Virus record (IMG/VR): IMGVR_UViG_3300032332_002443
Span: 1 to 24,483 of that record
DNA: 24,483 nucleotides
Strand: one strand, 5' to 3'
Source: a virus
Taxonomy: Duplodnaviria; Caudoviricetes
Part shown: positions 1 through 20,563 of the stretch, one piece after another
How positions within the stretch are numbered: the first letter of the stretch is position 1
Layout: every line of letters begins with the position of its first letter
Translations under genes and position numbers: made by a program
Notes under the pieces: model-generated
The model's input: the letters and a program-made list of their open reading frames with translations, nothing else
What the model was told of the DNA's origin: nothing
Database searches by the model: none

Positions 1-231
1 AACCTTAGCAATAGCAGCAATCGGCATTCCCTCATTAGTTAGACAAGATACTTCATATGCATTCCATATATCATATCCACAGAACGGAGGATTATTATCA
101 GAAATGTCTAAATGCTTTCTATTATTCTGTCTTGGCTCGCGAACTAAGAGTGATGGATCATATGTACATTTATACCCGGTTATTTTACCGAGATGCTTTG
201 ATATATTACTATTATCTAATTCCGTATTCAT
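1..231 (-). CDS. queF: 7-cyano-7-deazaguanine (preQ0) reductase QueF, bimodular type; N-terminal part, runs off the window edge
   Basis: Not in the ORF track. Manual translation from ATG 231: MNTELDNSNISKHLGKITGYKCTYDPSLLVREPRQNNRKHLDISDNNPPFCGYDIWNAYEVSCLTNEGMPIAAIAKV. This matches the E. coli-type QueF N-terminus (LGK-x-T-x-Y-x3-YD-x-SLL-x3-PR..R..L...PF-x-G-x-DIW-x2-YE-x-S-x-L-x3-G-x-P). Overlaps the end of the kinase gene by 20 nt. Confidence 0.9.
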   Translation of the reverse strand, partial: MNTELDNSNISKHLGKITGYKCTYDPSLLVREPRQNNRKHLDISDNNPPFCGYDIWNAYEVSCLTNEGMPIAAIAKV

Positions 232-790
232 TAAGTTTTATTTTAATTGCTTCCATTCGTTCTTCAACTGTTCCTTTTAAAATAGTTACCTTACCTTTTA
301 ACCGTTCATCTTTTAACCAAAAGTTCTCATACAAATCAATAATTGCATCTCTAAATTCTTTATTTGTACTTCTCTCACCATCGTCTACCAACGGTACATC
401 ATGAGGACTCGGATAAAAAATATGATCATATCTTTTAATATAATTTGTATAATATAAGAGACCTAAGCTATTAGACACAGGAAAATCATTTAGTCTGTCT
501 CTAGCAAAATAGCTTGTATAAACCATCCCATCCATTAAGCAGCGATCATGTAATATGCCTTGAAAATTAAATCCTTTATAATTATAAAACAAATTCTCAA
601 ATTCTTTATTCAGAATTAACGTCTGCGTTACATCATTAGCACCTTCTTCGTTTATATCACAATTATGCCAACGTTTAATTAGCCTAGTTACTTCATCAAT
701 ATAGCATAGCTTAGAGTCATAATATTCTTTACACTTCTTTAAAAGAGTAGTCTTACCCGAACACTGAGGACCTGTAAAAGTAAATATCAT
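212..790 (-). CDS. P-loop nucleotide kinase-like protein (AAA_28/NadR-like; putative (d)NMP kinase)
   Basis: Walker A GPQCSGKTT, E-x-x-R, HDRCLMDG (DR motif of TMPK-like kinases), YDHIFY, DDGER, LKGTVEER. Confidence 0.75.
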   Translation of the reverse strand: MIFTFTGPQCSGKTTLLKKCKEYYDSKLCYIDEVTRLIKRWHNCDINEEGANDVTQTLILNKEFENLFYNYKGFNFQGILHDRCLMDGMVYTSYFARDRLNDFPVSNSLGLLYYTNYIKRYDHIFYPSPHDVPLVDDGERSTNKEFRDAIIDLYENFWLKDERLKGKVTILKGTVEERMEAIKIKLNEYGIR

Positions 791-957
791 TTTTTAAGTA
801 TCTTAGCAGTATATTCTAACTCAATGCCATATAAAAGCTCTTTTAATGTTCTTACTTCTTCGCGAAGAATACGATTTTCTTCTTCTATTTTTTTTAGCTG
901 CTTTACTAATTCTGCTTTATTATCAGTTATTTGTCTATACCAATGCATTAAAGACAT
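787..957 (-). CDS. small coiled-coil hypothetical protein (56 aa)
   Basis: Manual translation MSLMHWYRQITDNKAELVKQLKKIEEENRILREEVRTLKELLYGIELEYTAKILKK. Fills the operon gap exactly, with an ATGA overlap into the kinase start. Confidence 0.7.
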   Translation of the reverse strand: MSLMHWYRQITDNKAELVKQLKKIEEENRILREEVRTLKELLYGIELEYTAKILKK

Positions 958-959
958 CT

Positions 960-1307
960 TTATTTACCCCACTTACCATTATATACTATTTCTGCAATAA
1001 TGCCATACACTGCAGAATCTCTAAATGCATCCATAACTGGCTCATTTGCTGAGCTCATTGCTTTCTTTTTTAAAACTAAATTAATTAACCGCTGAATTTT
1101 ATCATTAAGACGAACAACAATAGCAGATATTGCAGCAAACCTATCCTCTTGTTTTACTAAATCTGAACCAAGAGAAATATTTCCAGGACCGTAATCAAAT
1201 TGTTTTTTGCAAAACGTTTCGTAAAGCTCTATTTGTATTTTTTGAAACTCTTTGCATGTTTCAGGAAAATTTTTCTCTACGTATTTAATGGCATCTTCTT
1301 TATTCAC
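960..1307 (-). CDS. DUF1599 / nucleotide-modification-associated domain 1 (Nmad1), all-alpha protein
   Basis: KKQFDYGPGNI, RLNDKIQRLINL and EPVMDAFRDSAVYGII motifs. GTGA overlap with the guaC stop. Confidence 0.75.
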   Translation of the reverse strand: MNKEDAIKYVEKNFPETCKEFQKIQIELYETFCKKQFDYGPGNISLGSDLVKQEDRFAAISAIVVRLNDKIQRLINLVLKKKAMSSANEPVMDAFRDSAVYGIIAEIVYNGKWGK

Positions 1308-2263
1308 AATCTCACACCGTAATTCACTTTATTTAAATTTAATGAACCTAGATTGCAACCACCTGCATAGCTAATTGCACTCTGCAAATCTTGTTTTATT
1401 TCATCGAGTTTTTCTAGATATGTAAACGTATCTGTATCCATAAGCTTCATTGTACCTTCGATATTTTTCTTTTCAATTTTATTATGAACGCTAGCAGATC
1501 CAAAATATTGTTTATATCTTCTACCATTTGCATCCTTAACAAGGGGCGCTGGACTATCTGAACATGCAGCAAATATAGAACCGCACATTACCATATTAGC
1601 ACCTGCAACTAGCGCCTTAGCAATATCACCATTACTACGTACACCGCCGTCCGCAATAATAGGAATATTTCTATCTTTCGCACACTCCATAATACAGCTA
1701 AACATCGGATAGGTAAATCCGGTCTTATCTTTTGTTGTACATGCATATCCACCGCCAATGCCAACTTTTACTGCATCAGCCCCTGCATCATGCAAACACT
1801 CTACGCCTTCAAAAGTAGCTACATTACCAGCTATAACTATTGCCTTAGGCAAATTATCCTTAATTACTTTAATTTGATTAGCGACCTTGGAGTGGTGACC
1901 GTGTGCAACATCTATAGTGACGAAATCTACTCTAAGTTTATGGTTAGCTAAATTATTAATTAATGCTTTATCTTTAAATTGTATTCCTACGCTAATTGAA
2001 ACATTATTAAAAAGAGCTTCATTTGCATCTCTCACAAAAGCAAAAATATCATGATCAAATCTATGCATAATATAAAAGTAGTGTTTTGAATCCAATAATT
2101 GACAAATATCAAAATCAACACAACATCTCATATTAGCTGGTATAACTGGCAATTTAAATACTTTGCCTAAAAAATTAACATCTGTTTCAATTTCGCTACG
2201 AGTCTTAACAGAACTAAAGTTGGGTTTTAGAAAAACATTTTCGTAATGAAGAGATATATCCAT
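1304..2263 (-). CDS. guaC: GMP reductase
   Basis: IMPDH/GMPR barrel without CBS domains: PVIPANM, YIMHRF, TIDVAHGH, IAGNVAT, KVGIGGGYACTT (catalytic Cys), IIADGG, YFGSAS, DLQSAISYAGG. Confidence 0.9.
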   Translation of the reverse strand: MDISLHYENVFLKPNFSSVKTRSEIETDVNFLGKVFKLPVIPANMRCCVDFDICQLLDSKHYFYIMHRFDHDIFAFVRDANEALFNNVSISVGIQFKDKALINNLANHKLRVDFVTIDVAHGHHSKVANQIKVIKDNLPKAIVIAGNVATFEGVECLHDAGADAVKVGIGGGYACTTKDKTGFTYPMFSCIMECAKDRNIPIIADGGVRSNGDIAKALVAGANMVMCGSIFAACSDSPAPLVKDANGRRYKQYFGSASVHNKIEKKNIEGTMKLMDTDTFTYLEKLDEIKQDLQSAISYAGGCNLGSLNLNKVNYGVRL

Positions 2264-2264
2264 A

Positions 2265-2834
2265 TTATTTTTCTAAAACCTTATAAGCTGTGAAAAAACT
2301 TTTCCAGAGATCAAGTGCAGTGTCTCTCAGAGCACCGTATACACCATTTAAATCCATACCCTCAATACCTACGCCCTGACTCATTAATATTTCTCCCTCA
2401 TCTACACCTGGGGTAACCTTGTGTATAACACAACCGGCTAATTTGTAGCCTTGCACAAAAGCTCTTTCCTGCGGATTAAACCCTTTAAGCGATGGGAACT
2501 TATCAATCAGCCCTGGATGTAAGTTATATATTTCATACTGTTCACAAATCTCTTTAGGAATTATTCTCAAGTACCCATGAAGAGTGATCACCGGGTTATT
2601 AAAACACTTTAAGATTTTTAAATAATTGCTTGCAACCGGTTTGCTAGGCAAAGATATTAAAATAGTTTTATTAAGCTTATGCTCTCTAAACTGTGTTACA
2701 CTCAATAATCCCTTATTAACGTTTTTTAAATCTGACTTATTAGTTACAATTGCATCCGGATATACACCTAGCGTATTTGATATATCATGTATCTCGGTGC
2801 CGGTTTGCGAGAAAAATGTTATCCAAGGTCTCAT
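2265..2834 (-). CDS. PurN-like formyltransferase; by context probably a preQ1 formyltransferase (DpdN-like)
   Basis: FFSQTGTE, LHGYLRII, YNLHPGL (catalytic N/H), GCVIHKVTPGVDEGEIL (catalytic D). ATGA-coupled to the TGT-like gene. Confidence 0.8.
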   Translation of the reverse strand: MRPWITFFSQTGTEIHDISNTLGVYPDAIVTNKSDLKNVNKGLLSVTQFREHKLNKTILISLPSKPVASNYLKILKCFNNPVITLHGYLRIIPKEICEQYEIYNLHPGLIDKFPSLKGFNPQERAFVQGYKLAGCVIHKVTPGVDEGEILMSQGVGIEGMDLNGVYGALRDTALDLWKSFFTAYKVLEK

Positions 2835-3643
2835 CTACGAATAATCTTCTTAAACATTGTAGTATTATACTTTACTAGTTCAAGCTGATCATCAGTAATT
2901 TTATGTGTAATGAGATCGGCTAATTTTGTTGTCGGCTTATTTGTTAGACCGTAATCCGCATCATACTTTAAATTAAAGATAGCGGCAACGACAGGGTTAC
3001 TTGTATCACAAGAAACAATATTGTAGATATTCCTATCAACATAATATCGGAATTCTTTAGCCAAAGAGCAGCCTAATAAATGATGAGGTTTATTCCAGTT
3101 CCAAATATTACTATTAATTAAATCAGCAATAAAGCGCTGACGACCAGAACAGAACCTTTCAAGATCATTAGCACCATATCCAGTTGTCTGGTAGTAGCTA
3201 AAATCAAAACTTATTGCTATCATATCAGCACTATCAGACATAAACTTGTAACAATCAGCTAAATCTTTCCATGTCTTACCTTGAACAGCACCGATAGATT
3301 TCGTATAAAAGGATTTCTTAATATCATCAGTTTTCGTTTCAAATGCAACAAAGCTGCTAACAGTACCGTCAGCATCCTCTAGTACGTCAGGTACAATAAA
3401 CATATTTGGCTGAATATCTAGTGCAGCCTTATAAAACTTCTCAGGATTAAAAGCTTTGCCTAATTCAAATATTGAATTATCTAGAAGAACTTCTCTATTA
3501 TAAACAGAGCGCGCAGATTTAAAAAAGTTATAATATTCTGGAAATTCTTCAAAAAGATGAACTAATGCATAGTCAAAATCATTATATTTTTGTGACTCTT
3601 GGAGTATAGATATAGGCGATTCGTGTGAAACTTTCATTAGCAT
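2831..3643 (-). CDS. dpdA: TGT-fold deazaguanine transglycosylase-like protein (DpdA family, probably DpdA3-type)
   Basis: TIM-barrel motifs in TGT order: VLLDNSIFE, FIVPDV, GAVQG, IAISF, HHLLGC, SCDTSNP. No C-terminal Zn site. Start moved from TTG 3694 to ATG 3643, which lies 6 nt below a -10 box. Confidence 0.75.
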   Translation of the reverse strand: MLMKVSHESPISILQESQKYNDFDYALVHLFEEFPEYYNFFKSARSVYNREVLLDNSIFELGKAFNPEKFYKAALDIQPNMFIVPDVLEDADGTVSSFVAFETKTDDIKKSFYTKSIGAVQGKTWKDLADCYKFMSDSADMIAISFDFSYYQTTGYGANDLERFCSGRQRFIADLINSNIWNWNKPHHLLGCSLAKEFRYYVDRNIYNIVSCDTSNPVVAAIFNLKYDADYGLTNKPTTKLADLITHKITDDQLELVKYNTTMFKKIIRR

Positions 3644-3649
3644 AAATGT

Positions 3650-3678
3650 ATTATAACTGTAAATATTACATAGATCAA
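3650..3678 (-). promoter_or_regulatory. sigma70-like promoter of the modification operon
   Basis: TTGATC-17 nt-TATAAT, 6 nt upstream of ATG 3643. A plus-strand TAAATA (3660-3665) lies inside the spacer. Confidence 0.7.
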
Positions 3679-6279
3679 ATGAATTATCCAACATTTCATG
3701 GTAATTATTTGGGCATAGTTGTGCAGAACAATGACCCGCTCAAGAGAGGTAGAGTAAAGGTCTTTGTTCCTCATATTTCACCTTCTGTATACAAGAACTG
3801 GACTGAAAATAATGCGGATAAAAAATTTAAATTTTTAGGTAAAAATGTTAACAGCGATCTATCAAGTATTATAGATGATTTAAAGAAAATATTACCTTGG
3901 GCAGAATTATCGGTACCACTAGCAGGTGAGACAAGTAGCGGTAGATATAATGCCTATAAAAATACCGGTACAATAAGCGATAGTAGTAACTTGAATAGTA
4001 CTTTTAATAGTCCTACGAATTCTGAAATCGACCCAGCCAAGCTTACGCAGTTTTCTCAAAATCAAGATAATATAGGTGAAAAACCAGGAAATGTTTTTGA
4101 TATTAGCTATTATAAGTTAAAAGATGCATTTAATACTCCTAGTGAGACGAATGTTAATAACGCAAACAAATATAGTTATAATTATACACCAGAATGTTAT
4201 AGTAATTGTGCGCGCGGTAGTTTTCCTGTATTAAATGTTGGAGCTCACGTATGGGTGTTTTTTAATAACGGCGATCCTCTTAAACCAGTTGTTTTTGGTG
4301 GTTCATTCGGTTCAAATGACTGGCAAGGTATATTTGATAGCACTTCACCTGAATTATCTGCTGCAGGTACAAGCTTAGATTACCCAGGTAGCTATGAAAA
4401 TATATCAAATATAGATAATGAAAATTACGATATTAATACAGAAACTTATAGAAATAAATATGTCATAAATCAAAAAGGCGGAACATTAGCTTTTATCAAT
4501 ACCGATAATAGAGAGGTTTTAAAGTTAACGCATTACTCAGGATCATTTAAAGAGTTTAATAATTTTGCAAATATTGAGCTAGCTACAAACAACGATCAAA
4601 AATTAGTTTTAAATGATCAATTTTTAACTATACGGGGTACCAGAAATGAATTTACTGAGCTTGATTATGATCAGGTAACCAAGGGAGATATATATAGAAA
4701 AGTTGGTAACCTAGATCGTGAGTCTAGTTTGCTCTGGAAGACAATAGTTTCAGAGATAGCAGACGTAAAGCAGTTGTTTGATATTCAAAGAGCGGATAGC
4801 GCAACATCTATAGGCGGGCTAAAGCTTACATCATCTAAGCAGAGAAAAGTTTCTGGCTCTTTAAACAACCCGTGCCCTGTTTGTAATTCTAGCGCCACAA
4901 CATATTTTGCGGTTAACAATTCATTTAATCCAGATTTTGATTTAGGTATAATAGGCGGTACAACAAACGTTAAAGGTGATTTTCCTTTCGGTAATACATT
5001 TTCGCCAAACGGAATACAGCCGAGTATGGGATTTTTAGGAAATTTAGGCACTCCTCAAGCTATTACTCCTGTAGATAGTCTTGGCGGAACCGTCGACGGT
5101 TCTTCCGCATCCACTGGACCGGGGTATATTTTTGGTATACCATGCCCTGCGTGTAATCCAAATGATACTAACAGAAGTAATCCACAGAAAAGAGGAATTA
5201 ATCCTAGCTCTCAAGGTGGCTCATGGCCCGCGGATACTGAGAAACAAAAGCTACCAGATCTAATTAAAAGTAAAATTAAAGATTTAGCTGCTATAGAAAA
5301 AAGACTCGGTATAGGTGGCAGTGAAATTATTGAAATAACTAAGCATAAAATAGAAACTATCGGTACTGTAATGAATGATTTTGGCTCTATAAGAGTTGAT
5401 ATGCTTGGAAAAATGTATGTATCAGAAGTTCAGGTTGGTAAACACGGATCATTCTATAATAGAACACCTACCCCTCTAGTTGAGCTAGTTCATGTTGATG
5501 ATTTACCAGGCGGTAACTATACTCTTAATGTTTGTAATAGATACAATATAATGGTAGGAGCAGGTGGAGTTAGCTTAAAATCATACGGGCCTGTTAATAT
5601 AAGCGGCTCAATTACTAACGTAGCAGGCGAGCAGGTTAATATATCTAGTGAATTAGAAACAAATATAGACGGCGGAAAACGCCTTTCACTGGTAGGAGAT
5701 GTCGTTAGTATTAGACAAAGAGAAGGTAAGCAAGTAGTTGTAGAGGGCTCTTTAGGTGTTACTAATAATGTAATTGTAGCAGGCGGTATGCATGTAGAAG
5801 GCGAGCTAACAGCTAATCATATTACAATACCTACAGATGTACAGAACACTGAACAACAAATTGTATACAGTACTCCAGTAGAAGGAATGGCAATTGGTCG
5901 GGGATATACATCTACTACTAAAATAATAGGCTACCTAAAAGCATCTGATGTTACTAAGATATATTATACTATAGATGGAGAGCAAACGCCTTGCTCTATA
6001 CAACCTGGGTTTAGTTTAATACCTATATACGGATCTGGTATAGGAGCCACAGATATAGCTGCAGGTGTAGATAATTTTAGTAATGCAGCTGCAGACTCCC
6101 TGCCATTAGAAATTTATGGTACAGGAGCAGATCCTGATAGTATCTTTAGCCCCGCACATAGTCATAAGTTTAAGGGCGTTGCATCTACATTAACAAAAAC
6201 GAATGCAGAGGCACGAGAAGTTATTTCCGGTCAATATGCAGCAATTAATGCTGAGCCGTCCTCTGCAGGTCCAAAGTAA
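3679..6279 (+). CDS. baseplate hub/central spike protein, T4 gp5/VgrG-like
   Basis: OB-fold motifs YLGIVVQNNDPLKRGRVKV, LPWAE, VGAHVWVFFNNGDPLKPV; LTHYSGSFKEF beta-helix entry; beta-rich C-terminal region with HSH. Likely start is ATG 3679 (MNYPTF). Confidence 0.8.
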   Translation: MNYPTFHGNYLGIVVQNNDPLKRGRVKVFVPHISPSVYKNWTENNADKKFKFLGKNVNSDLSSIIDDLKKILPWAELSVPLAGETSSGRYNAYKNTGTISDSSNLNSTFNSPTNSEIDPAKLTQFSQNQDNIGEKPGNVFDISYYKLKDAFNTPSETNVNNANKYSYNYTPECYSNCARGSFPVLNVGAHVWVFFNNGDPLKPVVFGGSFGSNDWQGIFDSTSPELSAAGTSLDYPGSYENISNIDNENYDINTETYRNKYVINQKGGTLAFINTDNREVLKLTHYSGSFKEFNNFANIELATNNDQKLVLNDQFLTIRGTRNEFTELDYDQVTKGDIYRKVGNLDRESSLLWKTIVSEIADVKQLFDIQRADSATSIGGLKLTSSKQRKVSGSLNNPCPVCNSSATTYFAVNNSFNPDFDLGIIGGTTNVKGDFPFGNTFSPNGIQPSMGFLGNLGTPQAITPVDSLGGTVDGSSASTGPGYIFGIPCPACNPNDTNRSNPQKRGINPSSQGGSWPADTEKQKLPDLIKSKIKDLAAIEKRLGIGGSEIIEITKHKIETIGTVMNDFGSIRVDMLGKMYVSEVQVGKHGSFYNRTPTPLVELVHVDDLPGGNYTLNVCNRYNIMVGAGGVSLKSYGPVNISGSITNVAGEQVNISSELETNIDGGKRLSLVGDVVSIRQREGKQVVVEGSLGVTNNVIVAGGMHVEGELTANHITIPTDVQNTEQQIVYSTPVEGMAIGRGYTSTTKIIGYLKASDVTKIYYTIDGEQTPCSIQPGFSLIPIYGSGIGATDIAAGVDNFSNAAADSLPLEIYGTGADPDSIFSPAHSHKFKGVASTLTKTNAEAREVISGQYAAINAEPSSAGPK

Positions 6280-6587: not shown

Positions 6588-6806
6588 TTATTGAGCGGAT
6601 AATTTTTCTTTAAGACTATCAAATATTGTTTGTTTTTCTTCCAGGGCTTGAGACTTAAGTACATCAATAATCTTTAATACAACCGGAATGCGCAGTGTTT
6701 TTAGTGTCATGTGATTAGGTTCAAACGGTAAAAATCTTTGACAAATAAGATAAAGAATAGAAACTTCTTCTTCAGTAAGGCTCTGAAGCGTATGAGAATA
6801 AATCAT
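6588..6806 (-). CDS. hypothetical protein
   Basis: 72-aa ORF with an ATGA overlap with the nrdB stop. Confidence 0.65.
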   Translation of the reverse strand: MIYSHTLQSLTEEEVSILYLICQRFLPFEPNHMTLKTLRIPVVLKIIDVLKSQALEEKQTIFDSLKEKLSAQ

Positions 6807-7867
6807 AGCTTAATATCATCAAACGTATCTTCTGTTATATTCGTATCACGGGCACCGATCTTATAAGCAGAGATCTCTGTTTCTTGCGGTGCTACCTGAA
6901 CCTTACTACTATCCAGATAGCTATCAAGCCACCCTGCAATAGGATTTTCTTTTTGATTAAACAGCTTTTTATATCCTAGAGAACGCAACCTATTATCACA
7001 CAACCACTTTGTGTAACCGCCAAGTACGTCGGGGTTCAAGCCAAGCAAAGCACCTTTACTAAACAAATAATGTGCCCAATCTATTTCATTTTTTACAGCT
7101 TGCTCATAAAACGCATATACCTTATCCTCACTCTTTTTTGCAATTCCAGTAAATCCTTCCTTATCTTCATCACGAAATATTTTCAACAAATTCTGTGTAA
7201 TGCCAAAATGTAGAGCTTCATCGCGCTGAATAAACTTAATAATCTTAGAATTACCTTCCATCTTGCCGCGGTAACCGAAATAAAAGCTACAAGCAAACGA
7301 TACATAAAAAACAAGCCCTTCCATTACGTTGGTCGAAAGTACACAATCATAAATTTTCTCCCTCTTATCTTTCTTTTCATCTGATCCAAGAATTTTATCA
7401 TAATTATTTCGGATTAACTCAGCTCTGCTTACAATTTCCTTATCCTCCATAATGCTGTCAAAAAATTTGGTAGCATCTGGATGAACATTATTAAGCAGAT
7501 ATGAATAGCTATAGCTATGAATACCCTCAAACCGTGCCCATGTATTCATACATATTTCTAGTTCAGGATTAGTTACGTACTCTTTTAATGAATGTATAGA
7601 CCTAGAGAGCATGCTATCTCCTAATGTTTGAAATCTTAGATTTTGATCGAATACAAACCGTTCTTCTGCTGTCAACTCCTTATAGTCACTCCTATCTTTT
7701 TGCAAAGAGATTTCATGAGGCCACCAGAAGAATTCTTCTTGCTTTTTAAATAACTCAAAAAAGATAGGGTACTTAAACCTATCATATCTCTGAAGATTTA
7801 AATCTTCACCAAGAAATATTGGCTGCTTGGTGTAGTCAATATTTTTTAAATTAAGTACAGACTTCAT
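6803..7867 (-). CDS. nrdB: ribonucleotide reductase class Ia beta subunit
   Basis: FFWWPHE, TLGDS, FEGIHSYSY (radical Tyr), MEGLVFYVSF, RDEALH, VAPQETEISAY. Confidence 0.95.
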   Translation of the reverse strand: MKSVLNLKNIDYTKQPIFLGEDLNLQRYDRFKYPIFFELFKKQEEFFWWPHEISLQKDRSDYKELTAEERFVFDQNLRFQTLGDSMLSRSIHSLKEYVTNPELEICMNTWARFEGIHSYSYSYLLNNVHPDATKFFDSIMEDKEIVSRAELIRNNYDKILGSDEKKDKREKIYDCVLSTNVMEGLVFYVSFACSFYFGYRGKMEGNSKIIKFIQRDEALHFGITQNLLKIFRDEDKEGFTGIAKKSEDKVYAFYEQAVKNEIDWAHYLFSKGALLGLNPDVLGGYTKWLCDNRLRSLGYKKLFNQKENPIAGWLDSYLDSSKVQVAPQETEISAYKIGARDTNITEDTFDDIKL

Positions 7868-7876
7868 AAGGTTGTA

Positions 7877-8461
7877 TTATTTATAGTAAAAATTATTTTT
7901 ACTCATTATAGTTAAGCCATAGCAAAATGCTATCTTGTTATTATTTCTTTTATGAATATGCAGCGGACACCAGCCCTTACTTACTAGATAATTATTAAGA
8001 CGTCTTTCAGGTGCATCATCTGATTTAAATCCATATCTTAATAAGCTCCACGCGCCTGTATCATGTATCGCAATAATAGTTTTATCGGTTATTTTCTGAG
8101 AACTTAGCATTGTTTCAAAAAAAATAATCTGACCATCACTATCATGTGTATCAAAAAATATTAAATCTATATTATCCATCGGGATATCATCTGGAACAAT
8201 ATTCTTAATATCTTTATGAATAAAAATAAATCCCCTATAAGCATTCTTATATTCATTTTTATCTATGCTTACTACTTTTCCGTCAAACGAAGATACGGAT
8301 TGCAAAAAATTATTTGCTGAATATCCGGTACTAGTACCTAATTCGACTATATTTTTTAATCTCATAGCTCTACATAAAGCATAAAGAAATAATGCTTCAT
8401 CATCACTAATTGCATTAGGTACAGTATCTAGGTGCTGTATTAAATGAGACATATGATACAT
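7877..8461 (-). CDS. class I SAM-dependent methyltransferase (Methyltransf_24-like)
   Basis: IVELGTSTGYS, VVSID, IDLIFFDTHD, IAIHDT. Start moved to ATG 8461 (or 8452), just after the nrdA stop. Confidence 0.8.
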   Translation of the reverse strand: MYHMSHLIQHLDTVPNAISDDEALFLYALCRAMRLKNIVELGTSTGYSANNFLQSVSSFDGKVVSIDKNEYKNAYRGFIFIHKDIKNIVPDDIPMDNIDLIFFDTHDSDGQIIFFETMLSSQKITDKTIIAIHDTGAWSLLRYGFKSDDAPERRLNNYLVSKGWCPLHIHKRNNNKIAFCYGLTIMSKNNFYYK

Positions 8462-8468
8462 GGCTAAC

Positions 8469-10727
8469 CTACAGCTTGCATGCGCCGCTAGAGCAATCAG
8501 CTTCTTTATTTGTCGACTGCTCTTTATCGCCATCATCCGTGTTATTATAATATAAACTTATAAGACCCATACTGTAAGCATACATTAGTTCTTTCATTAC
8601 TTTTGCATCAGGTAGAACATTATTTTCATACTGACTGTAGTTGTAGTAAATGTTAGTCGAAATAGCCATATCAATATATTTTTGTATAACAGCATTTATA
8701 TTAATAATACCCGTATTGTCTTTAAAATTATAAGCTAATTCATAATTCGAATCATACTTTCCAATACCCGGAACAAGTACTGGTAATTTACCCATCTTAG
8801 ACATCTTGTATGTTATTAATGACCGTACTGGCTCTACACCATTGGTAGAGCATTGTATTACAGAGCTTGACTCGCAAGGCATACAGCAGGAAAGTGTTGA
8901 ATGTCTGAGACCAAATTCTTTTATTTGCTCGCGCAAGCTCTTCCAGTCAAGCGATAATTTTCTTTTTAAAATTTCATCAACATTTTTCTTATAGGTATCA
9001 ATTGAAAGGATACCTTTGGCAAATTTTGTTCGTTCATATTTTTCACACTTACCCTTCTCTTTAGCTAGCTTATTACTCGAAGAAAGAAGATAATATTGAA
9101 AATGTTCCATCCATTCATCAATTAAAACTAGTGCCTGTTTGGAGTTATATGATACTTCATTCTTAGCTAAGAACGCAGCAAGATTGGTGATCCCTATACC
9201 TAAGCTTCTTCTTTTTTTAGCAAAATTTTCTGCTGCTTTATTGAAGTAATATTGTATATCAATTATTTCCTCTAAAAATCTTACCGCAAGATCACATGTT
9301 TTCTCAAGGTCTTTCCAATCTTTAATCTCAAGCATATTAATTGCAGACAAGATACACATGCCTATCTCACCATCTGAATCATGATAGTCTTTAAGAGGTA
9401 TGGTGGGGTGTAGTACTTCAGTACAAAGATTACTCATTGTTACCTTATCCAACCAAGGAGTGTGTTCATTTGCTGTATCTACGTTTAAAATATAGATGCG
9501 ACCGGTCTCAACACGCTCCTTAATAATTAGAGAAAATAGCTTACGAGCTGATATTTTCTTTTTAAGTTTAATTTTTTTATCTGATTCACACTCTTCATAC
9601 ACTTTATTAAATCGTGATGTGCCCCATGCTTCATATAGATGTGGTACTTCAGCGGGGCTAAATAGAGTTATATTTTCGTTTTTTATTACTCTGTCATAAA
9701 AAAGCTTTGACATACCCACTGTGTAATCAAGCTTACGAACTCTATTATCATCAGTACCTGCATTATTTTTAAGTACAACAATATCATCAATTTCATAATG
9801 CCACCACTGAACATTAACTGTAGCTGAACCACCTCTTAAGCCATTCTGCTGCCATGCTTTAACTGAAGCTTCATAAATCTTTAAAAACGGAATCAGACCA
9901 GTATGAACTACTTCACCGTTATTAACAGATGAACCAATAGCTCTTATTTTAGAGACATCAATACCAATGCCACATCTACTCGCAGTAGCAATTGATATAG
10001 CTGTACCGGATGCTGTAATTGACTCCTTTGTGTCATCGACACCTATCAAGCAACAACTTGCATAGCTTTTCGATCTCGATCTCACACCTGCCATAATAGG
10101 TGTAGGTAGATTAATCTTATGCCTTGAAATAGCGTTATAAAACCTTCTTACATATTCTAACCGAGCTTCTGCTGGATAATTTATAAACGCATACATAGCT
10201 ATGAGAATATAAGCAAATTGAGGTGTTTCAAAAATTTTATCTGTAACTCTATTTTTAATTAGATATTTGTCACAAAGTTGTTTTATACCAGCGTAAGTAA
10301 ATAAAAAGTCTCTATCATGATCAATATATTCACCAATTTTGTTTATTTCATCCTCAGAATATTTTTCAATTATAGCAGGATCATAAATTTCCTTTCTAAG
10401 TCCAGAATTAATTACATCAAGCAATCGTGGAGGATGCTTACCACCCCAAACATCTTTACGTAATTGATAATTTAATAATCTACCTGCAACATATTGATAG
10501 TTTGGTTTTTCAAGTGATATTAAATTTGCTGCTGATTCAATTAAAACTTGGTGTATATCTTGTGTAGAAATGTTTTCCGTTATATTAAGTTTTGAATTAA
10601 TTTCTACTTCCGATAAGCTTACACCGCTTATCCCTTCAACCGCCCACGAGATTACCTTATTAATCTTTTCAATATTAAATTTTTCTACCTGACCGTTGCG
10701 TTTTTTTACGAATATTTGAGTGCTCAT
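8469..10727 (-). CDS. nrdA: ribonucleotide reductase class Ia alpha subunit with ATP cone
   Basis: VKKRNG ATP cone, LPTPIM, SCCLI, SNLCTE, MPCESSS, SLYY, C-terminal CSSGACKL. Confidence 0.95.
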   Translation of the reverse strand: MSTQIFVKKRNGQVEKFNIEKINKVISWAVEGISGVSLSEVEINSKLNITENISTQDIHQVLIESAANLISLEKPNYQYVAGRLLNYQLRKDVWGGKHPPRLLDVINSGLRKEIYDPAIIEKYSEDEINKIGEYIDHDRDFLFTYAGIKQLCDKYLIKNRVTDKIFETPQFAYILIAMYAFINYPAEARLEYVRRFYNAISRHKINLPTPIMAGVRSRSKSYASCCLIGVDDTKESITASGTAISIATASRCGIGIDVSKIRAIGSSVNNGEVVHTGLIPFLKIYEASVKAWQQNGLRGGSATVNVQWWHYEIDDIVVLKNNAGTDDNRVRKLDYTVGMSKLFYDRVIKNENITLFSPAEVPHLYEAWGTSRFNKVYEECESDKKIKLKKKISARKLFSLIIKERVETGRIYILNVDTANEHTPWLDKVTMSNLCTEVLHPTIPLKDYHDSDGEIGMCILSAINMLEIKDWKDLEKTCDLAVRFLEEIIDIQYYFNKAAENFAKKRRSLGIGITNLAAFLAKNEVSYNSKQALVLIDEWMEHFQYYLLSSSNKLAKEKGKCEKYERTKFAKGILSIDTYKKNVDEILKRKLSLDWKSLREQIKEFGLRHSTLSCCMPCESSSVIQCSTNGVEPVRSLITYKMSKMGKLPVLVPGIGKYDSNYELAYNFKDNTGIININAVIQKYIDMAISTNIYYNYSQYENNVLPDAKVMKELMYAYSMGLISLYYNNTDDGDKEQSTNKEADCSSGACKL

Positions 10728-12083: not shown

Positions 12084-13322
12084 ATGGCTGATATAGTTAC
12101 AAAGATACAATTTAGACAAGGAACAGATGCACAAAGGCGTACCGCTAATAGTACCGGTATAGTATTCAGTACTGGTGAGCCGGGGTTCTGTATTGATACA
12201 AAAAGAGTTTTTATAGGCGGTGATTCATTTGCCGGCGGGTGGCCAGTAGGTATACAAAATATTGGTTTTGCTAATAAATTATTCGGCACATCGACAAACG
12301 GATTTACTACCGAAGCCTTAGGTCTCTTTAATTCAAAAGGTGCTGCTCTCGGTGATATCATTTACGATAAAGACACGAGAGGTATTTACGCACTAACTGC
12401 TGTTAGTTCTTTTCCTCCTTTATCATCAGATTTCGTAAAGTATGATTCTTCCCCCTTACTAGACAGCACACAATTTCAGTATAATAGCCAAAAAGAACTT
12501 CAGATAAAACAGGGCGGAGTAGGTCCACAGCAATTAGGCTTTACTACAGTAGATAATATTACACTAGCAAAGCCGTCATATGCCTCACCACTACAATTAA
12601 AATCTAACGGTGTAGCAAACGGGTATCTTGCACAAATGTTACCTTATACTGTTAAGATTAATAATAGATCTAGTACTAGTGACCCTACAGATCAGGTAAT
12701 ATTACCCAACCATGTCTTAGGAAGAACAAGCACATCAGTTTTAACATCTGTTCCGTTTGAAGCAATATTTCAAGAGGCAAATTATGTCGGTGACAACGGA
12801 ATACTGATTGATAAAACTTTAGCAGCCCCGAAGTTTTACCTCGATACAGCAATGTTATCTTCAACACCACTAAAACTCTATCTAAAGAAAGCTACTGATG
12901 TACAGGGTAATCTTGGTGTTACCGGCGTAATCACTGGCTCGAGCAGTCTCTCACTAGCCGGTAATGCTACCGTTCAGGGAACAATATATTGCAGAAATGA
13001 TATTATTGCATATCAACCGCCTTCGGATATTAAAATAAAAAATAATGTTAAGATAATCGATAGCCCTATAGAAAAAGTAAAGCAGCTAAATGGTTGTTCC
13101 TTTATATTTAATCAAGATGCCCCAGAGCATCTACAGAACAAATCTTCATATGGTCTTATTGCACAGGATGTTGAAAAGGTGTTGCCTCATGCTGTTGAAG
13201 AGCGTCACACGGGTATTAAGGGAGTAAATTATCATAATATAACACCTCTTCTAGTCGAATGTATTAAGAAGTTATCTGAAAAAGTTGAAGCTTTAGAAAA
13301 TGAAATTCGAAAATCTAGTTAA
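12084..13322 (+). CDS. tail fibre/spike with N-terminal Mtd_N/hyaluronidase-like domain and C-terminal peptidase S74 chaperone
   Basis: KIQFRQGT...GEPGFCIDTKRVFIG; SDIKIKNNV...YGLIAQDVEKVLP...VNY...LLVECIK. Confidence 0.85.
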   Translation: MADIVTKIQFRQGTDAQRRTANSTGIVFSTGEPGFCIDTKRVFIGGDSFAGGWPVGIQNIGFANKLFGTSTNGFTTEALGLFNSKGAALGDIIYDKDTRGIYALTAVSSFPPLSSDFVKYDSSPLLDSTQFQYNSQKELQIKQGGVGPQQLGFTTVDNITLAKPSYASPLQLKSNGVANGYLAQMLPYTVKINNRSSTSDPTDQVILPNHVLGRTSTSVLTSVPFEAIFQEANYVGDNGILIDKTLAAPKFYLDTAMLSSTPLKLYLKKATDVQGNLGVTGVITGSSSLSLAGNATVQGTIYCRNDIIAYQPPSDIKIKNNVKIIDSPIEKVKQLNGCSFIFNQDAPEHLQNKSSYGLIAQDVEKVLPHAVEERHTGIKGVNYHNITPLLVECIKKLSEKVEALENEIRKSS

Positions 13323-13494
13323 ATCTATCTTAGAAGATTTTAATATATCCCCGCAATCGCAAGCCGTATCAAGCACTGGACCGGATTGCGGTATGACAAG
13401 CGGCGATATGAGCAATACTTTTCCTAGTAAAATGGAGACAGTAAAGTTTAAGCTAAAGAATAAAAAAATTAAGAAGAAGCTAAGAAGAGACTGA
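13300..13494 (+). CDS. small hypothetical protein, possibly head-internal
   Basis: N-terminal MKFENLVKSILEDF and Lys-rich C-terminus. Confidence 0.55.
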   Translation: MKFENLVKSILEDFNISPQSQAVSSTGPDCGMTSGDMSNTFPSKMETVKFKLKNKKIKKKLRRD

Positions 13495-14146
13495 TTACAC
13501 TTTTGGCTCGCTTACCAACTTGAGTTGCCCATTTACTATTCTGTAATTCTTTAGCTGCATTAGAATAATCTTTAGATAAAATAAAGTCTTTTGTTTTTAT
13601 AAATTTACTTAACCTTGAGTATCCCATATTGAACGACAGATCTAAAACAGCTAATTTAATATTTTTTGGCAACCCATCGAAATTATGTATCCACTGTTTG
13701 GCATCTTTGTAGGCAATAGTCATTGTTATCTTAAAAATATCTTTAATTTGCTCATCAGATAAATCTTCTTTACCGAGCAATATATTCTGATAATTTACGC
13801 CTGCTTGCTGTGCTATCTTTTTTGCATCAGGTCTTGTTAAATTAAACCCTATACCTATAGTTGGTATACCTAGGGAATCCTTATAAACATGGGGCCTATA
13901 ACCTTCATGATCCTTTACGAAATTGAAGATATCATCAAATGTTAACTTAGTATCTTCTGCTTGTTGAATTATAGCGGGTGGCGGTGGCGGTACATCTACA
14001 CCCTCTTTAAAGATATGCTTTCTACTTATAGAGGCATATATATCGGCAAGCTCTTTATTCTCTTGCTTAATGTCCTTTGGATCTGGTCTTTTATAATAGT
14101 CAGATATCTCACCGCCGTATAATTGGTGCTTAACCTCCGGATGCAT
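13469..14146 (-). CDS. GH24 (T4-type) lysozyme with N-terminal extension
   Basis: HEGYRPHVYKDSLGIPTIGIG (E-8-D-5-T triad), LDLSFNMG, SKWATQVGKRA; PPPPP linker. Confidence 0.9.
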   Translation of the reverse strand: MHPEVKHQLYGGEISDYYKRPDPKDIKQENKELADIYASISRKHIFKEGVDVPPPPPAIIQQAEDTKLTFDDIFNFVKDHEGYRPHVYKDSLGIPTIGIGFNLTRPDAKKIAQQAGVNYQNILLGKEDLSDEQIKDIFKITMTIAYKDAKQWIHNFDGLPKNIKLAVLDLSFNMGYSRLSKFIKTKDFILSKDYSNAAKELQNSKWATQVGKRAKSVISLFLASS

Positions 14147-14154
14147 GTATATAT

Positions 14155-14730
14155 TTAATTAAGAACAGCTACCTTTACTATTTTTGGATGTGAATCTGCG
14201 AAATCAATTGCATCGCTTTTATTAACAAAGAATACATCAATAACTGGTAACTTACCGCCAGACGCTACTTTATCCTTAACTGCAGTGCCTGTATCTACAG
14301 CTCTAACAAGACCAACGTTGGGGATAATAACTTCTTTATCATAAGGAATGATACGCGGATCGACAGCAATTGAATCGCCTTGCTTGAGTGTATAACCGGT
14401 AGAGCTTCTCATTCTACGACTATCGGCATCTGTACCGCTACCTCGCGCCCAATATACAGTTAACCTAACAGTAAGAACTTTGTAGTCGCTCTTATCTGTC
14501 TTAGGTATAAACGTTCCATTATATTTTATACCATCTTTCTTGACTTCTATCTTCTTGGCTATTTCTTGTTCTTTTACTAGTGTTAAAGATTTCAATTCTT
14601 TCTTAACATCACTAACAGTTAGGTTCCTTTCTATACGCTGAAAAGCTGTTAGACTTATAGGATTAGTAGTTAATATTAATCCTACCAGGATTAATAATAG
14701 TTTATTTGTTCTTGTGTTTTTTGTTTTCAT
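14155..14730 (-). CDS. 3D-domain (MltA-like) peptidoglycan-active protein with N-terminal signal/TM segment
   Basis: RLTVY, IAVDPRIIPY, AVDTG, VIDVF (three Asp); hydrophobic LLLILVGLILTT. Confidence 0.85.
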   Translation of the reverse strand: MKTKNTRTNKLLLILVGLILTTNPISLTAFQRIERNLTVSDVKKELKSLTLVKEQEIAKKIEVKKDGIKYNGTFIPKTDKSDYKVLTVRLTVYWARGSGTDADSRRMRSSTGYTLKQGDSIAVDPRIIPYDKEVIIPNVGLVRAVDTGTAVKDKVASGGKLPVIDVFFVNKSDAIDFADSHPKIVKVAVLN

Positions 14731-14735
14731 AGATT

Positions 14736-14756
14736 AAAAAAAAGTCGCTTTGCGAC
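14736..14756 (-). terminator. intrinsic terminator-like hairpin
   Basis: Minus strand GTCGC-AAA-GCGAC followed by T8. Confidence 0.55.
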
Positions 14757-14790
14757 GGGCCTAATTAGGCACTAATGTATGTCTTAATAT

Positions 14791-15249
14791 TTAATCTAGT
14801 TTAACGGATTCCCAAGGAAAGTCAAGCCAAATATTGTCGTCAAATTCTCTTATATAAAAATTCGGAATAAACTGTGTAGATTTCTTTATGTAGAGTGTGG
14901 CAAATTTAAAATTAGTAAACTCACATGATTCAAAATAATCTTTTACGGCTAAAAGCGTTTTACCTTTATCGGAAAGATCGTCAATAATTACAACTCTTTT
15001 CTCTCTAAATTCTGAATTAAATTTAAACCCCGGTATTTGTCCAAATTCTAATTCACCAGCAGTAAAGTCGTGATAAGATTTAATAGCAAAATTTGCTACC
15101 GGTACATCAAATATATAAGAAATAATAGCACCGGGTACTAAGCCCCCACGACCAATAGCAACAATAGCATCACAAGGACCAATAAGGTTAGCTAAATCTT
15201 TACAATCTTTATGTATTTGATCCCACGCCAGGCTTATACGTTCCGACAT
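14791..15249 (-). CDS. purine phosphoribosyltransferase (Gpt/XGPRT-like)
   Basis: AIGRGGLVPG, IKSY, PRPP loop VIIDDLSDKGKT, WLDFPWE. Confidence 0.85.
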   Translation of the reverse strand: MSERISLAWDQIHKDCKDLANLIGPCDAIVAIGRGGLVPGAIISYIFDVPVANFAIKSYHDFTAGELEFGQIPGFKFNSEFREKRVVIIDDLSDKGKTLLAVKDYFESCEFTNFKFATLYIKKSTQFIPNFYIREFDDNIWLDFPWESVKLD

Positions 15250-15255
15250 TAAGAT

Positions 15256-15283
15256 ATTTTAAATTATAAATTTAAAAATTCAA
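15256..15283 (-). promoter_or_regulatory. sigma70-like promoter
   Basis: TTGAAT-16 nt-TAAAAT, 6 nt upstream of ATG 15249. Confidence 0.5.
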
Positions 15284-15552
15284 ACATTATTAATAGCAGA
15301 GGATAAATCCTTATGAAGCTTACTCATACTAGTAAGAATATAAAGATAGTCTTCCTTTAAGCCGCGAGATGCTCTTTTTGTCATATTGTTAAGCTCAGAA
15401 GCTATTCTCTTTTTTAAAATTGATTCTTCGTCTTCTTGATTATGGATAGCATCATACTCCTTCGGTGCATATGCATAAGAGTCAGTACTTCTTGTAGTAT
15501 GATTAATACCTGCACGATATGCTTCACTTATAGCTTTATGATCTTTAGTCAC
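15280..15552 (-). CDS. hypothetical protein with KDxxxIxEAY leader
   Basis: GTG start 5 nt below TAAATA; MTKDHKAISEAY. Confidence 0.7.
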   Translation of the reverse strand: MTKDHKAISEAYRAGINHTTRSTDSYAYAPKEYDAIHNQEDEESILKKRIASELNNMTKRASRGLKEDYLYILTSMSKLHKDLSSAINNV

Positions 15553-15553
15553 C

Positions 15554-15563
15554 TAAATATTTA
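15554..15563. promoter_or_regulatory. palindromic bidirectional late-type promoter TAAATATTTA
   Basis: Provides TAAATA on both strands between divergent starts at 15552 and 15569. Confidence 0.55.
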
Positions 15564-15568
15564 TGTAA

Positions 15569-15799
15569 ATGAAGAAGGGTTCTCTACGAAAAACGCTTGC
15601 CGCTCAAATAATGCTAGACAATGCCGATTGTTATAAAGTATGCTTAGGTTGTGAATCTGTAATACTCTATAGTAGTACCTTCTGTCCATTATGTGATAGT
15701 TACAGATTTGATGAAGATGTAGAGCAAGTTATTAAGTTTATAAATGCACTAATAAAAAAAGATAATACGACTATTTTACCACCTGATCAGCAGTTTTAA
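15569..15799 (+). CDS. small zinc-ribbon protein
   Basis: YKVCLGC...FCPLCDSYRFDE (CxxC-x10-CxxC). Confidence 0.7.
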   Translation: MKKGSLRKTLAAQIMLDNADCYKVCLGCESVILYSSTFCPLCDSYRFDEDVEQVIKFINALIKKDNTTILPPDQQF

Positions 15800-15938
15800 T
15801 ATATTCGTTTAAATGCTGAGAGAGGAAAATTACTTTTCTCATCAATTCTTCTTTTTTGGTAAGCTTCTTTTCCTTCTTTGCCTTAGCGTATAGATCTAAT
15901 ATTGTATCAGCGGTAACTTTTTTTCTTTCCGCACTCAT
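15771..15938 (-). CDS. small basic hypothetical protein (55 aa)
   Basis: Manual translation MSAERKKVTADTILDLYAKAKKEKKLTKKEELMRKVIFLSQHLNEYIKTADQVVK; TAAATA 5 nt upstream. Confidence 0.6.
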   Translation of the reverse strand: MSAERKKVTADTILDLYAKAKKEKKLTKKEELMRKVIFLSQHLNEYIKTADQVVK

Positions 15939-15994
15939 ATTAATATTTAATTTATAACCAGTTGCTTTTCGTTCAAGTTATAATAAAAATATCT

Positions 15995-16189
15995 ATGTCA
16001 AACATTAATCCCCTAACACTTCAAGAACACGTTGCAACCTTTACTGCCGAATACGAAAAGTTTTCTGGCGGTAATAATGCCGCAGGTACTCGTACCCGCA
16101 AGGCTCTTCAGGAGGTAATTAAGTTTGCCCGTGAAGCACGCAAAGGTGTTCAAGAAGAAAAGAATGCCCGCAAGGCTGCTAAAAAGTAA
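15995..16189 (+). CDS. histone H1-like Hc1-family small basic protein
   Basis: KF-x2-GNNAAGTRTRKAL...ARKGVQEEKN signature; likely start ATG 15995. Confidence 0.75.
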   Translation: MSNINPLTLQEHVATFTAEYEKFSGGNNAAGTRTRKALQEVIKFAREARKGVQEEKNARKAAKK

Positions 16190-16197
16190 TTTTTAGT

Positions 16198-16521: not shown

Positions 16522-16527
16522 TATTAT

Positions 16528-16551: not shown

Positions 16552-16557
16552 ATTAGT

Positions 16558-18151: not shown

Positions 18152-18155
18152 ATAG

Positions 18156-19934: not shown

Positions 19935-19938
19935 TAAT

Positions 19939-20562: not shown

Positions 20563-20563
20563 T

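Follow-up and report, generated by a model that had tools for sequence, protein, structure and literature searches.

A dpdA3-dpdN-queF operon in an uncultured T4-like phage and the possible part of its kinase in making a modified nucleotide

The operon and its promoter

The window, a stretch of 24,483 nucleotides that is a whole contig, comes from an uncultured T4-like phage. Seven minus-strand open reading frames at positions 1-3643, all behind one conserved promoter, encode, in this order, DpdA3, DpdN, a GuaC-like protein, a DUF1599/Nmad1-like protein, a small coiled coil, a P-loop kinase and QueF (Table 1). The operon is a variant of a published DNA modification system, not a new one. The first-pass annotation had reported seven co-oriented genes and a single promoter in front of them, and both features were borne out. 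The TGT fold, the PurN-like formyltransferase and the QueF that it had named were confirmed by Pfam, NCBIfam and fold searches, but the four middle genes (GuaC-like, DUF1599-like, coiled coil and kinase) had been left without names. The six junctions include the expected 4-base overlaps (ATGA, GTGA and ATGA) and gaps of 1 and 2 nt, as well as a previously undescribed 20-nt overlap between the kinase gene and queF. When positions 1-3700 are divided into 30 bins, every bin is covered by contigs of the public run X1, several pieces of which show no differences; X1 is possibly the sample that the window came from.

Table 1. Features of the operon and their positions in the window
Feature	Positions	Strand	Remarks
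dpdA3	2831-3643	minus	270 aa, start ATG 3643
dpdN	2265-2834	minus	189 aa
GMP reductase (GuaC)-like	1304-2263	minus	319 aa
DUF1599/Nmad1-like, all-helical	960-1307	minus	115 aa, GTG start
Coiled-coil ORF	787-957	minus	56 aa
P-loop nucleoside/nucleotide kinase (AAA_28, PHROG 2107)	212-790	minus	192 aa
QueF, N-terminal part	1-231	minus	77 aa, runs off contig end
Sigma70-type promoter TTGATC-17-TATAAT	3650-3678	minus	score 10/12; -10 box ends 6 nt before ATG

The ORF tool placed the dpdA3 start at 3694. The real start is the ATG at 3643, because the relatives align from there and the promoter sits between the two positions. This promoter shares the top score of its region, and promoter-like sites as such are not more numerous than in shuffled sequences (22 found, 20.5 expected). 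A -10-like hexamer is found 4-10 nt (mostly 6) upstream of the dpdA3 start in 34 of 39 relatives, which remained from 40 hand-picked ones after one was dropped for having no start codon. An SD-like motif precedes the start in none of the 39. The conserved position of the -10 hexamer and the missing SD-like motif make it likely that the operon mRNA is leaderless.

The 7-deazaguanine proteins

The best match of the window DpdA3 among 50,697 phage records belongs to Flavobacterium phage immuto_2-6A, in which fdPreQ1 replaces dG fully and no dG is left (Cui et al. 2023, PMC10516641). The window protein matches the DpdA3 of this phage at 46% and that of phage CP220 at 45%, in both cases over about 255 aa (the reference proteins, YP_010114477 and YP_009169190, are those named in Cui 2023 Data S1). 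All 22 phage records matched in this search are DpdA3-type. The family is large, with 3354 proteins when clustered at 90% and 628 representatives when clustered at 50% (E up to 1e-10).

The AF2 model of DpdA3 (pLDDT 97) is a TGT-type barrel. The top 50 Foldseek matches are all TGTs, with tRNA TGTs in the top rows, and the best VIA structural match is DpdA 7ui4 (Z 17.4, rmsd 3.1, 230 residues aligned). The sequence has no match in Pfam or NCBIfam, including PF01702/tgt, and in PHROGs it matches solely families of unknown function. The PDB sequence-profile search returned 7ui4 alone, at E 0.29. Residues D55, D86, H188 and D213 are invariant in all 131 rows of the DpdA3 alignment; their counterparts in Cap10, D73, D122, H226 and D248, were assigned from residue order and motif rather than by superposing the structures. 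In the tree, the window protein groups with those of immuto_2-6A and CP220 (support 96/99), and DpdA1 lies on the other side of a 100/99 branch. The immuto_2-6A protein (fdPreQ1) pairs with that of CP220 (dADG) at 94/93, and the DpdA3 phylogeny does not track the base made.

Assignment to DpdA1 was rejected on the basis of this branch and of a 2% hhalign probability against the DpdA1 of phage 9g. A zinc-binding Cys cluster is the mark of tRNA-acting TGTs, and the DpdA3 alignment has just two scattered conserved Cys columns; together with the missing family match, this led to the rejection of a tRNA-acting enzyme. Thus the protein first described as a DpdA-like TGT has the TGT fold and groups with DpdA3 rather than with tRNA-acting TGTs. 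Charge was discarded as a sign of DNA binding, since the median pI of DpdA3 (5.55) overlaps several DpdA1, including that of 9g (5.64), and small size was likewise discarded as a sign, since one DpdA1 has 240 aa. An apparent DpdA3-Nmad1 fusion in P0354 was not accepted (hhalign probability 6%, no Pfam match).

The short formyltransferase matches PF00551, and its catalytic triad, N104, H106 and D145, is invariant in 31 of 31 rows. In alignments, the N-terminal loop SQTG[TS]E falls opposite SGTGSN, the phosphate-binding loop of GAR transformylase. The best match among the 50,697 phage records, 46% over 95% of the length, is YP_010114479 of immuto_2-6A, named DpdN in the publication, where formyl transfer is itself a prediction (Cui et al. 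2023, PMC10516641). The link between DpdN, DpdA3 and fdPreQ1 in a Flavobacterium phage, which the first-pass annotation had mentioned, is therefore real. Cyanophage PurN matches at just 34% over half the length, and the score against the PurN equivalog TIGR00639 is 54.5 bits, far below the cut-off of 150.1. The earlier statement that this 'purN' is not a purine-biosynthesis auxiliary gene is thus supported. The protein is likely DpdN, predicted to formylate preQ1 or dPreQ1. Homologs in which DpdA3 is fused to DpdN (P0246 and P0301) or to QueF (P0391-P0393) tie the three genes together.

The QueF fragment matches PF14819 and TIGR03138 and agrees at 97% with the complete two-domain QueF of relative L005. 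Since the window is the whole contig, only the N-terminal residues are present. The ESKS.KLY and catalytic Cys motifs, which are QueF signatures, occur in L005 and in 56 of 67 full-length relatives, and lie beyond the contig end here. The search for folE, queD, queE and queC beyond position 1, advised in the first-pass annotation, meets the end of the window at that position, but all four genes are present in 5 of 5 long relatives, tens of kb from the operon. NCBIfam scores in these relatives are above the cut-off for QueC and below it for FolE, QueD and QueE. The window itself shows DpdA3 and QueF, and we infer the preQ0 genes of its phage from the five relatives.

The kinase and its neighbors

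The profile of the window kinase gives weak matches to thymidylate kinases, a deoxynucleoside kinase and NadR alike. Its orthologs adjoin dpdA3 in immuto_2-6A and CP220. Of 79 window-like loci, 74 have a kinase within 10 kb of dpdA3, and a contig end cuts 4 of the 5 that do not; a kinase is likewise near dpdA3 in 74 of 80 immuto-like loci (all 6 misses have no more than 400 bases downstream) and in 4 of 4 phiST-like loci; the environmental loci are kin, so these counts overstate independence. When DpdA3 is clustered at 70% identity, 19 of 22 clusters have the kinase. In the window-like loci it is commoner than dpdN (64/79) or queF (67/79). dNMP kinases are common in large phages anyway. DpdA1 controls, scanned for the Walker A motif independently of any query, had a neighboring kinase in 0 of 17 and 1 of 9 cases; the 17 are mostly 9g relatives, and the control loci are all of the DpdA1 type.

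Detection by tblastn is circular for cultured DpdA3 phages; Pfam and the motif scan were relied on, and they identified a kinase in 5 of the first 7. A kinase is found beside dpdA3 in 8 of 10 cultured lineages, from three separate, unrelated kinase groups, and in Ahp1 and D479 the slot is occupied by a T4 gp1-type dNMP kinase. In immuto_2-6A, CP220 and phiST, for which complete G replacement by different bases has been measured, the kinase is within two genes of dpdA3. In two cultured phages, Rhizobium I1_18 and Brevundimonas StAshley, dpdA3 has no kinase neighbor, and neither StAshley nor the L075 contig (48% complete) has an AAA_28 match. The window kinase matches 21 of the 50,697 phage records, and 18 of these also carry DpdA3. 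No DpdA3-kinase fusion was seen among 9 long representatives and 4 longer matches. At 0.78, the distance correlation between DpdA3 and the kinase falls within the range of the other operon pairs (0.57-0.82; 42 loci left after dereplication of 53) and thus shows no special co-evolution. No paper linking DpdA3 to a kinase was found in the literature searched, most subscription papers being outside it.

The GuaC-like protein scores 337.9 bits against PRK05458 (cut-off 344) and keeps the GGGYACTT motif, whose Cys is presumably catalytic in GMP reductase. Its gene is an optional member of the operon: 34 of 79 loci have it within 10 kb, and it occupies two positions. The coiled-coil ORF is also optional (12/79 by tblastn), and contigs in runs X1 and X2 skip roughly this stretch. 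The Nmad1-like protein scores 0.96 in Atlas to DUF1599 clusters, and its homologs match PF07659 below the cut-off. The gene is present in 58 of 79 loci, accompanied by DpdN in 57 of the 58. Foldseek gave no match with E below 1. The fold match to 2p06 (Z 7.2, rmsd 3.7, 86 aligned) is tied with generic helical bundles; 2p06, like 2a3q, presumably has a MazG-like fold, and 2q9l, titled iMazG, is also among the matches. The protein is a candidate nucleotide pyrophosphatase.

Other nucleotide-cleaving genes accompany dpdA3 elsewhere: PRA-PH in 77 of 80 immuto-like loci, DCD/dUTPase-like genes in 4 of 4 phiST-like loci, with MazG in phiST, and a dATP/dGTP diphosphohydrolase (PF18909) in the Nmad1 slot of 3 of 79 loci. 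The long relatives lack MazG (0/5), PRA-PH (0/5) and DNMK (0/3); PF18909 is at 0/5 as well, its control having matched nowhere either. All five long relatives have a weak DCD/dUTPase-like match, at a great distance from the operon. No recognized dNTPase was found near dpdA3 in the 11 DpdN-less window-like loci.

Proposed pathway, alternatives and known systems

The operon likely represents an fdPreQ1-type system, in which formyl-preQ1 would replace the phage guanine, because DpdA3 and DpdN are near those of immuto_2-6A and the preQ0 genes occur in the long relatives. FolE, QueD, QueE and QueC would convert GTP to preQ0, which QueF would turn into preQ1 by established chemistry. DpdA3 would exchange guanine for preQ1 using Asp213 as a nucleophile, with deoxyguanosine or dGMP, rather than DNA, as its putative substrate. 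DpdN is predicted to formylate the aminomethyl group from formyl-folate, on the base, nucleotide or DNA. Phosphorylation to the triphosphate, which the family B polymerase of the phage would then use, would fall to the operon kinase, possibly helped by the host NDP kinase and by another kinase encoded next to queE. The pyrophosphatase slot, here perhaps Nmad1, might drain dGTP, and GuaC could conceivably act as an optional guanine sink. The resulting nuclease-resistant DNA would armor the phage against host nucleases.

The linkage of kinase and dpdA3 and the nearby dNTP-cleaving genes favor a base exchange that precedes replication and acts on free deoxyguanosine or dGMP. We put its chances slightly above even; given an fdPreQ1-type system, a pool-level route is somewhat more likely than not. 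For the whole explanation, an fdPreQ1 operon with the modified base built into free nucleotides before replication, our estimate is about 0.5. The chances are about even that DpdA3, the kinase and a dGTP sink together create a non-canonical dGTP pool, which would make formyl-preQ1 a true fourth letter, copied by the polymerase of the phage in the way that Z stands in for A, in a large aquatic-phage family. ADG nucleoside was observed in infected cytoplasm, and plasmid DNA in E. coli was left unmodified when DpdA3 was tested on it (Cui et al. 2023, PMC10516641); the failure may be explained by the kinase, as none was reported in that test. Against the pool route count the origin of all its support in gene context and the two cultured DpdA3 phages without an adjacent kinase.

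Cui et al. concluded that all such modifications are post-replicative and modeled a DNA-binding groove on DpdN; their table also has one phage with DpdN and DpdA1 (PMC10516641). It is possible, but on the unlikely side, that DpdA3 inserts preQ1 or formyl-preQ1 into finished DNA and that the kinase, GuaC, Nmad1 and a distant phosphoribosyltransferase (PRTase) do no more than keep nucleotide pools in balance or salvage them, for instance by reusing the guanine set free at each G site. In E. coli, DNA is the substrate of DpdA1 and DpdA2 (PMC10516641), the nearest structure, 7ui4, is a DNA-acting DpdA, and two cultured phages do without an adjoining kinase. Furthermore, the window encodes a xanthine/guanine PRTase at 14791-15249, and 59 of 80 immuto-like loci have one close to dpdA3. 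Salvage, however, should serve DpdA1 phages too, with up to 30% of G replaced, and kinases are almost missing beside DpdA1; dGTP-cleaving enzymes would probably starve a phage that needs dGTP for copying, and DpdA3 left plasmid DNA unmodified. It is less probable still that the same cluster makes unformylated dPreQ1, a mixture or a partial replacement. DpdN activity is a prediction in PMC10516641 too, the DpdA3 tree ignores the base, and six window-like loci have QueF and the kinase without DpdN; but DpdN is intact with an invariant triad, its gene overlaps dpdA3 by 4 bases, it is fused to DpdA3 in two homologs, and three of three measured DpdA3 phages are fully replaced.

Two further explanations appear very improbable. 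P-loop kinases that phosphorylate a DNA base exist (5-HMUDK, PMC8989533), and a kinase whose substrate is DNA or a side product of the pathway, and which would be silent on timing, could have left a phosphate that was missed because published digests use phosphatase. Nevertheless, phiST has a kinase and plain 7-deazaguanine without a side chain to phosphorylate, and Ahp1 and D479 fill the slot with a classical dNMP kinase family. Least credible is a reading in which the formyltransferase gene and guaC are auxiliary genes of ordinary purine metabolism and tRNA is the substrate of the TGT-fold protein. The PHROG label of DpdN ('phosphoribosylglycinamide formyltransferase'), the tRNA TGTs heading the Foldseek results and guaC-like genes in 73 phage records of other kinds are in its favor, but the formyltransferase matches only DpdN at full length, and the TGT-fold protein, with neither a Pfam TGT match nor a Cys cluster, is placed in DpdA3 by sequence and tree.

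What the window adds to the published system, as the kinase link suggests, is mechanism, in that it addresses how DpdA3 phages reach 100% guanine replacement. If exchange is indeed pre-replicative, it would no longer hold that every 7-deazaguanine mark in DNA is post-replicative, the TGT family would gain a new substrate class, and the enzymes could serve to produce modified dGTP and DNA that resists nucleases; if it is not, the operon is one more member of the published system.

Compared with immuto_2-6A, the order dpdA3-dpdN-kinase-queF is common to both, the kinases agree at 29% and the QueF proteins at 57% over 68 aa, and FolE, QueD, QueE and QueC are found in the window's relatives. Unlike immuto_2-6A, the window operon has the GuaC, Nmad1 and coiled-coil genes inserted and is divergent from a gp5-like baseplate gene, its relatives lack the PRA-PH/MazG-like hydrolase and keep the preQ0 genes at a distance, and the polymerase is family B instead of family A. 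Campylobacter phage CP220 (dADG) and Cellulophaga phage phiST (dDG), both with complete G replacement (PMC10516641), share DpdA3 and an adjacent P-loop kinase, from another group in phiST; they lack QueF and DpdN and therefore have a different base. DpdA1, DpdA2 and bacterial DpdA, which are post-replicative and replace 0.1-30% (PMC10516641), share the TGT fold and the DNS/DSG and DTS/DSS motifs but form a separate clade, and DpdA1 has ParB-like proteins, clamps and polymerases for neighbors in place of kinases. Base replacement is pre-replicative in 5-hmdU phages (PMC8989533). The base and the enzymes of these phages are different from those of the window, whose route is inferred from gene context. 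In Z-genome phages, which differ in the same way, A is replaced by Z before replication. The logic would be shared by all three: a nucleotide-level base-maker, a kinase and a dNTP remover, the last exemplified by the PF18909 enzyme of three window relatives, lead to full replacement.

Operon layout and the first gene

An ORF scan of the window (24,483 bases, the entire virus contig) finds seven minus-strand ORFs running from position 3643 to the contig end. Three of the junctions are 4-base overlaps and two are gaps of 1 nt and 2 nt, much as the first-pass annotation described, but one is a 20-nt overlap. The sigma70-like sequence ahead of the operon is predicted to be a leaderless promoter, read by the host polymerase. 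Of 39 relatives picked by hand, 34 have a -10-like box 4-10 nt upstream of the start, and none has an SD-like motif. Promoter-like sites as such show no excess (22, compared to 20.5 in shuffles). Divergent signals are interleaved in the short gap: a plus-strand TGTAAATA, which we take to resemble the T4 late promoter consensus, precedes the likely gp5 start at 3679. Its counterpart, TATTTAC, is found again in many relatives.

Features of the window
Feature	Position	Strand	Remarks
P-loop kinase	212-790	minus	substrate class left unsettled by the sequence
Small coiled coil	787-957	minus	optional; 12/79 loci
DUF1599/Nmad1-like	960-1307	minus	58/79 loci
GMP reductase-like	1304-2263	minus	at 34/79 related loci, in two positions, hence optional
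DpdA3	2831-3643	minus	first operon gene
Promoter TTGATC-17-TATAAT	within 3644-3678	minus	sigma70-like; occupies 35-bp gap to divergent gp5-like gene
TGTAAATA	3658-3665	plus
nrdA + nrdB	6803-10727		class Ia ribonucleotide reductase
Methyltransferase	7877-8536		between nrdA and nrdB
Tail-fibre-like ORFs	12084-23264	plus	at least seven, mostly with MAD(T/V)TI start; one with S74 chaperone domain
Lysozyme	13469-14146		among tail-fibre-like ORFs
3D-domain protein	14155-14730		among tail-fibre-like ORFs
Xanthine/guanine phosphoribosyltransferase-like	14791-15249		homologue near dpdA3 in 59/80 immuto-like loci

The first gene encodes DpdA3. Searches of Pfam and NCBIfam gave no match to its product. 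In 50,697 phage records, tblastn finds 22 matches, the best being in immuto_2-6A (46%) and in Campylobacter phages, CP220 (45%) among them. The proteins of these two phages are both named DpdA3 by Cui et al. (PMC10516641). With the AlphaFold2 model (pLDDT 97; alignment of 131 sequences), TGTs fill 50 of 50 rows among the Foldseek matches listed. A wider fold search is headed by DpdA 7ui4 (Z 17.4, rmsd 3.1, 230 aligned), followed by an archaeal (17.3) and a bacterial TGT (16.6), the three being tied within 1. D55, D86, H188 and D213 are invariant in all 131 rows. In a 26-row tree, the window protein, immuto and CP220 share one 96/99 clade, and a 100/99 branch parts DpdA3 from DpdA1. The TGT-fold, DpdA-like reading proposed earlier is upheld by the structure search, and sequence and tree place the protein in DpdA3.

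DpdN, QueF and the predicted base

By its sequence the second gene is dpdN. N104, H106 and D145 of its product are invariant in 31 of 31 rows, and PurN catalysis uses the equivalent residues. The protein matches YP_010114479, the DpdN named by Cui et al., over its full length at 46%, compared to 34% over half its length for a cyanophage PurN, and it scores far under the PurN cut-off. The 'purN' is very unlikely to be a purine-biosynthesis gene, in line with the first-pass annotation. The queF noted earlier, the operon's last gene, proved to be the N-terminal part of one, 97% identical to the complete two-domain QueF of the related locus L005.

Each of the five long relatives searched (157-230 kb; five out of the 79 window-like loci) has genes for QueC, FolE, QueD-like and QueE-like proteins, together with a family B polymerase. 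Homologues of DpdA3 include fusions to DpdN (P0246, P0301) and to QueF (P0391-P0393). Because of the identities of DpdA3, DpdN and QueF, these fusions and the preQ0 genes, the earlier prediction of fdPreQ1 stands; by analogy with the one phage in which this base was measured, the window phage probably carries it in its DNA.

Six loci (L036, L050, L051, L053, L054, L056) have dpdA3, kinase and queF without dpdN, and are predicted to yield dPreQ1. Five others (L052, L057, L060, L065, L077) have dpdA3 and kinase with neither dpdN nor queF nearby and may make another base. The C-terminal domain of P0248 looks acetyltransferase-like by eye, with no Pfam match; if genuine, it would hint at an acetyl variant in place of formyl. 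Other DpdA3 homologues have a 317-aa N-terminal domain matching no family (P0273), a tail bearing NUMOD3 (P0305) or a weak Nmad1-like tail (P0354).

The kinase beside dpdA3

Three sets of environmental dpdA3 loci were compared. Of the 79 window-like loci, 74 have a kinase gene no more than 10 kb from dpdA3; four of the others are cut off by a contig end, and L075 is a true miss. It is near dpdA3 in 74 of the 80 immuto-like loci kept out of 99 found, all six misses being contig ends, and in 4/4 phiST-like loci. The link holds up when DpdA3 is clustered: 89 of the 95 clusters formed at 90% have it, as do 19 of the 22 formed at 70%. Eight of ten cultured lineages have the kinase within 4 kb (immuto, CP220, phiST, MA9V-3, Youna2, Ahp1, D479 and Bakedbeans); the DpdA3 labels of MA9V-3, Youna2, D479, Bakedbeans and StAshley were assigned here, and the Youna2 kinase was called from a Walker A motif and from how its Bacillus relatives are annotated. 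Two of the three lineages added after the kinase idea had formed (D479, Bakedbeans, StAshley) fit. I1_18 has AAA_28-type genes elsewhere only, none beside dpdA3, and a search for such a gene in StAshley found none.

Among control loci, all of them DpdA1, few and mostly kin, such a kinase occurs within 4 kb in 0/17 from IMG/VR and 1/9 cultured. The sole exception is a Ploopntkinase3 in Quesadilla, five genes off and beside the terminase. The window kinase matches 21 phage records: 18 with DpdA3, two representing a further contig of a DpdA3 phage, and Campylobacter phage CC_R7 (PQ092953.1), which has no DpdA3 match by tblastn of the 50,697 records. Three groups are seen among the dpdA3-adjacent kinases, a pattern that speaks for repeated recruitment rather than for a single inherited block.

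A second AAA_28-type kinase is found at or near queE in 3/3 long relatives examined and, adjoining a dUTPase, in Campylobacter phages (L213:729-1472 (G003); G001:107901, G004:179667; L216:3983-4507). Two kinases could perform the nucleoside-to-NMP and NMP-to-NDP steps. In Vibrio phage Bakedbeans a dihydrofolate reductase gene (L222:2915-3472) is immediately upstream of dpdA3, with kinases on either side. In L003, L031, L040, L048 and L055 the operon has gained genes of unrelated kinds (tryptophan halogenase-like, radical SAM/SPASM, cupin, HIT hydrolase, ornithine cyclodeaminase-like).

Modification before or after replication

The analysis establishes the genes, their folds and residues, and their linkage, from which all substrates and the timing are inferred; we favour a pool-level route, with a probability of about 0.5. 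PreQ0 would be converted to preQ1, DpdA3 would exchange the base of dG or dGMP, DpdN would formylate it and the kinase would phosphorylate the product, which the phage polymerase would incorporate while dGTP is drained. Genes for putative dNTP-cleaving enzymes recur near dpdA3: PRA-PH in 77/80 immuto-like loci, DCD/dUTPase-like genes in 4/4 phiST-like loci and in Ahp1, D479, I1_18 and MA9V-3, and MazG in phiST. In L046, L058 and L059 the very slot of Nmad1 is taken by a dATP/dGTP diphosphohydrolase. This recurrence makes Nmad1 a candidate dGTP sink. However, Nmad1 accompanies DpdN in 57 of 58 loci, and 11 window-like loci that lack DpdN have no recognised dNTP-cleaving gene nearby, which counts against such a role. 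The Nmad1 model is helical (pLDDT 88), and fold searches gave no clear match.

In the published route, exchange is post-replicative, and the salvage genes would be helpers alongside; we regard this as rather unlikely. The words 'kinase' and 'phosphate' have no occurrence in the full supplement text of PMC10516641. That paper describes other deazaguanine phages as being without homologues of phiST CGPG_00066, which, by position and size, we take to be the kinase. A modified-dGTP route was already proposed for Campylobacter phages, according to PMC6884629, which takes the general idea back to 2019; in the literature searched, no paper was found that ties a kinase to DpdA3. The operon is real and is a variant of the published system, and its kinase link presents a testable challenge to the mechanism published for DpdA3.
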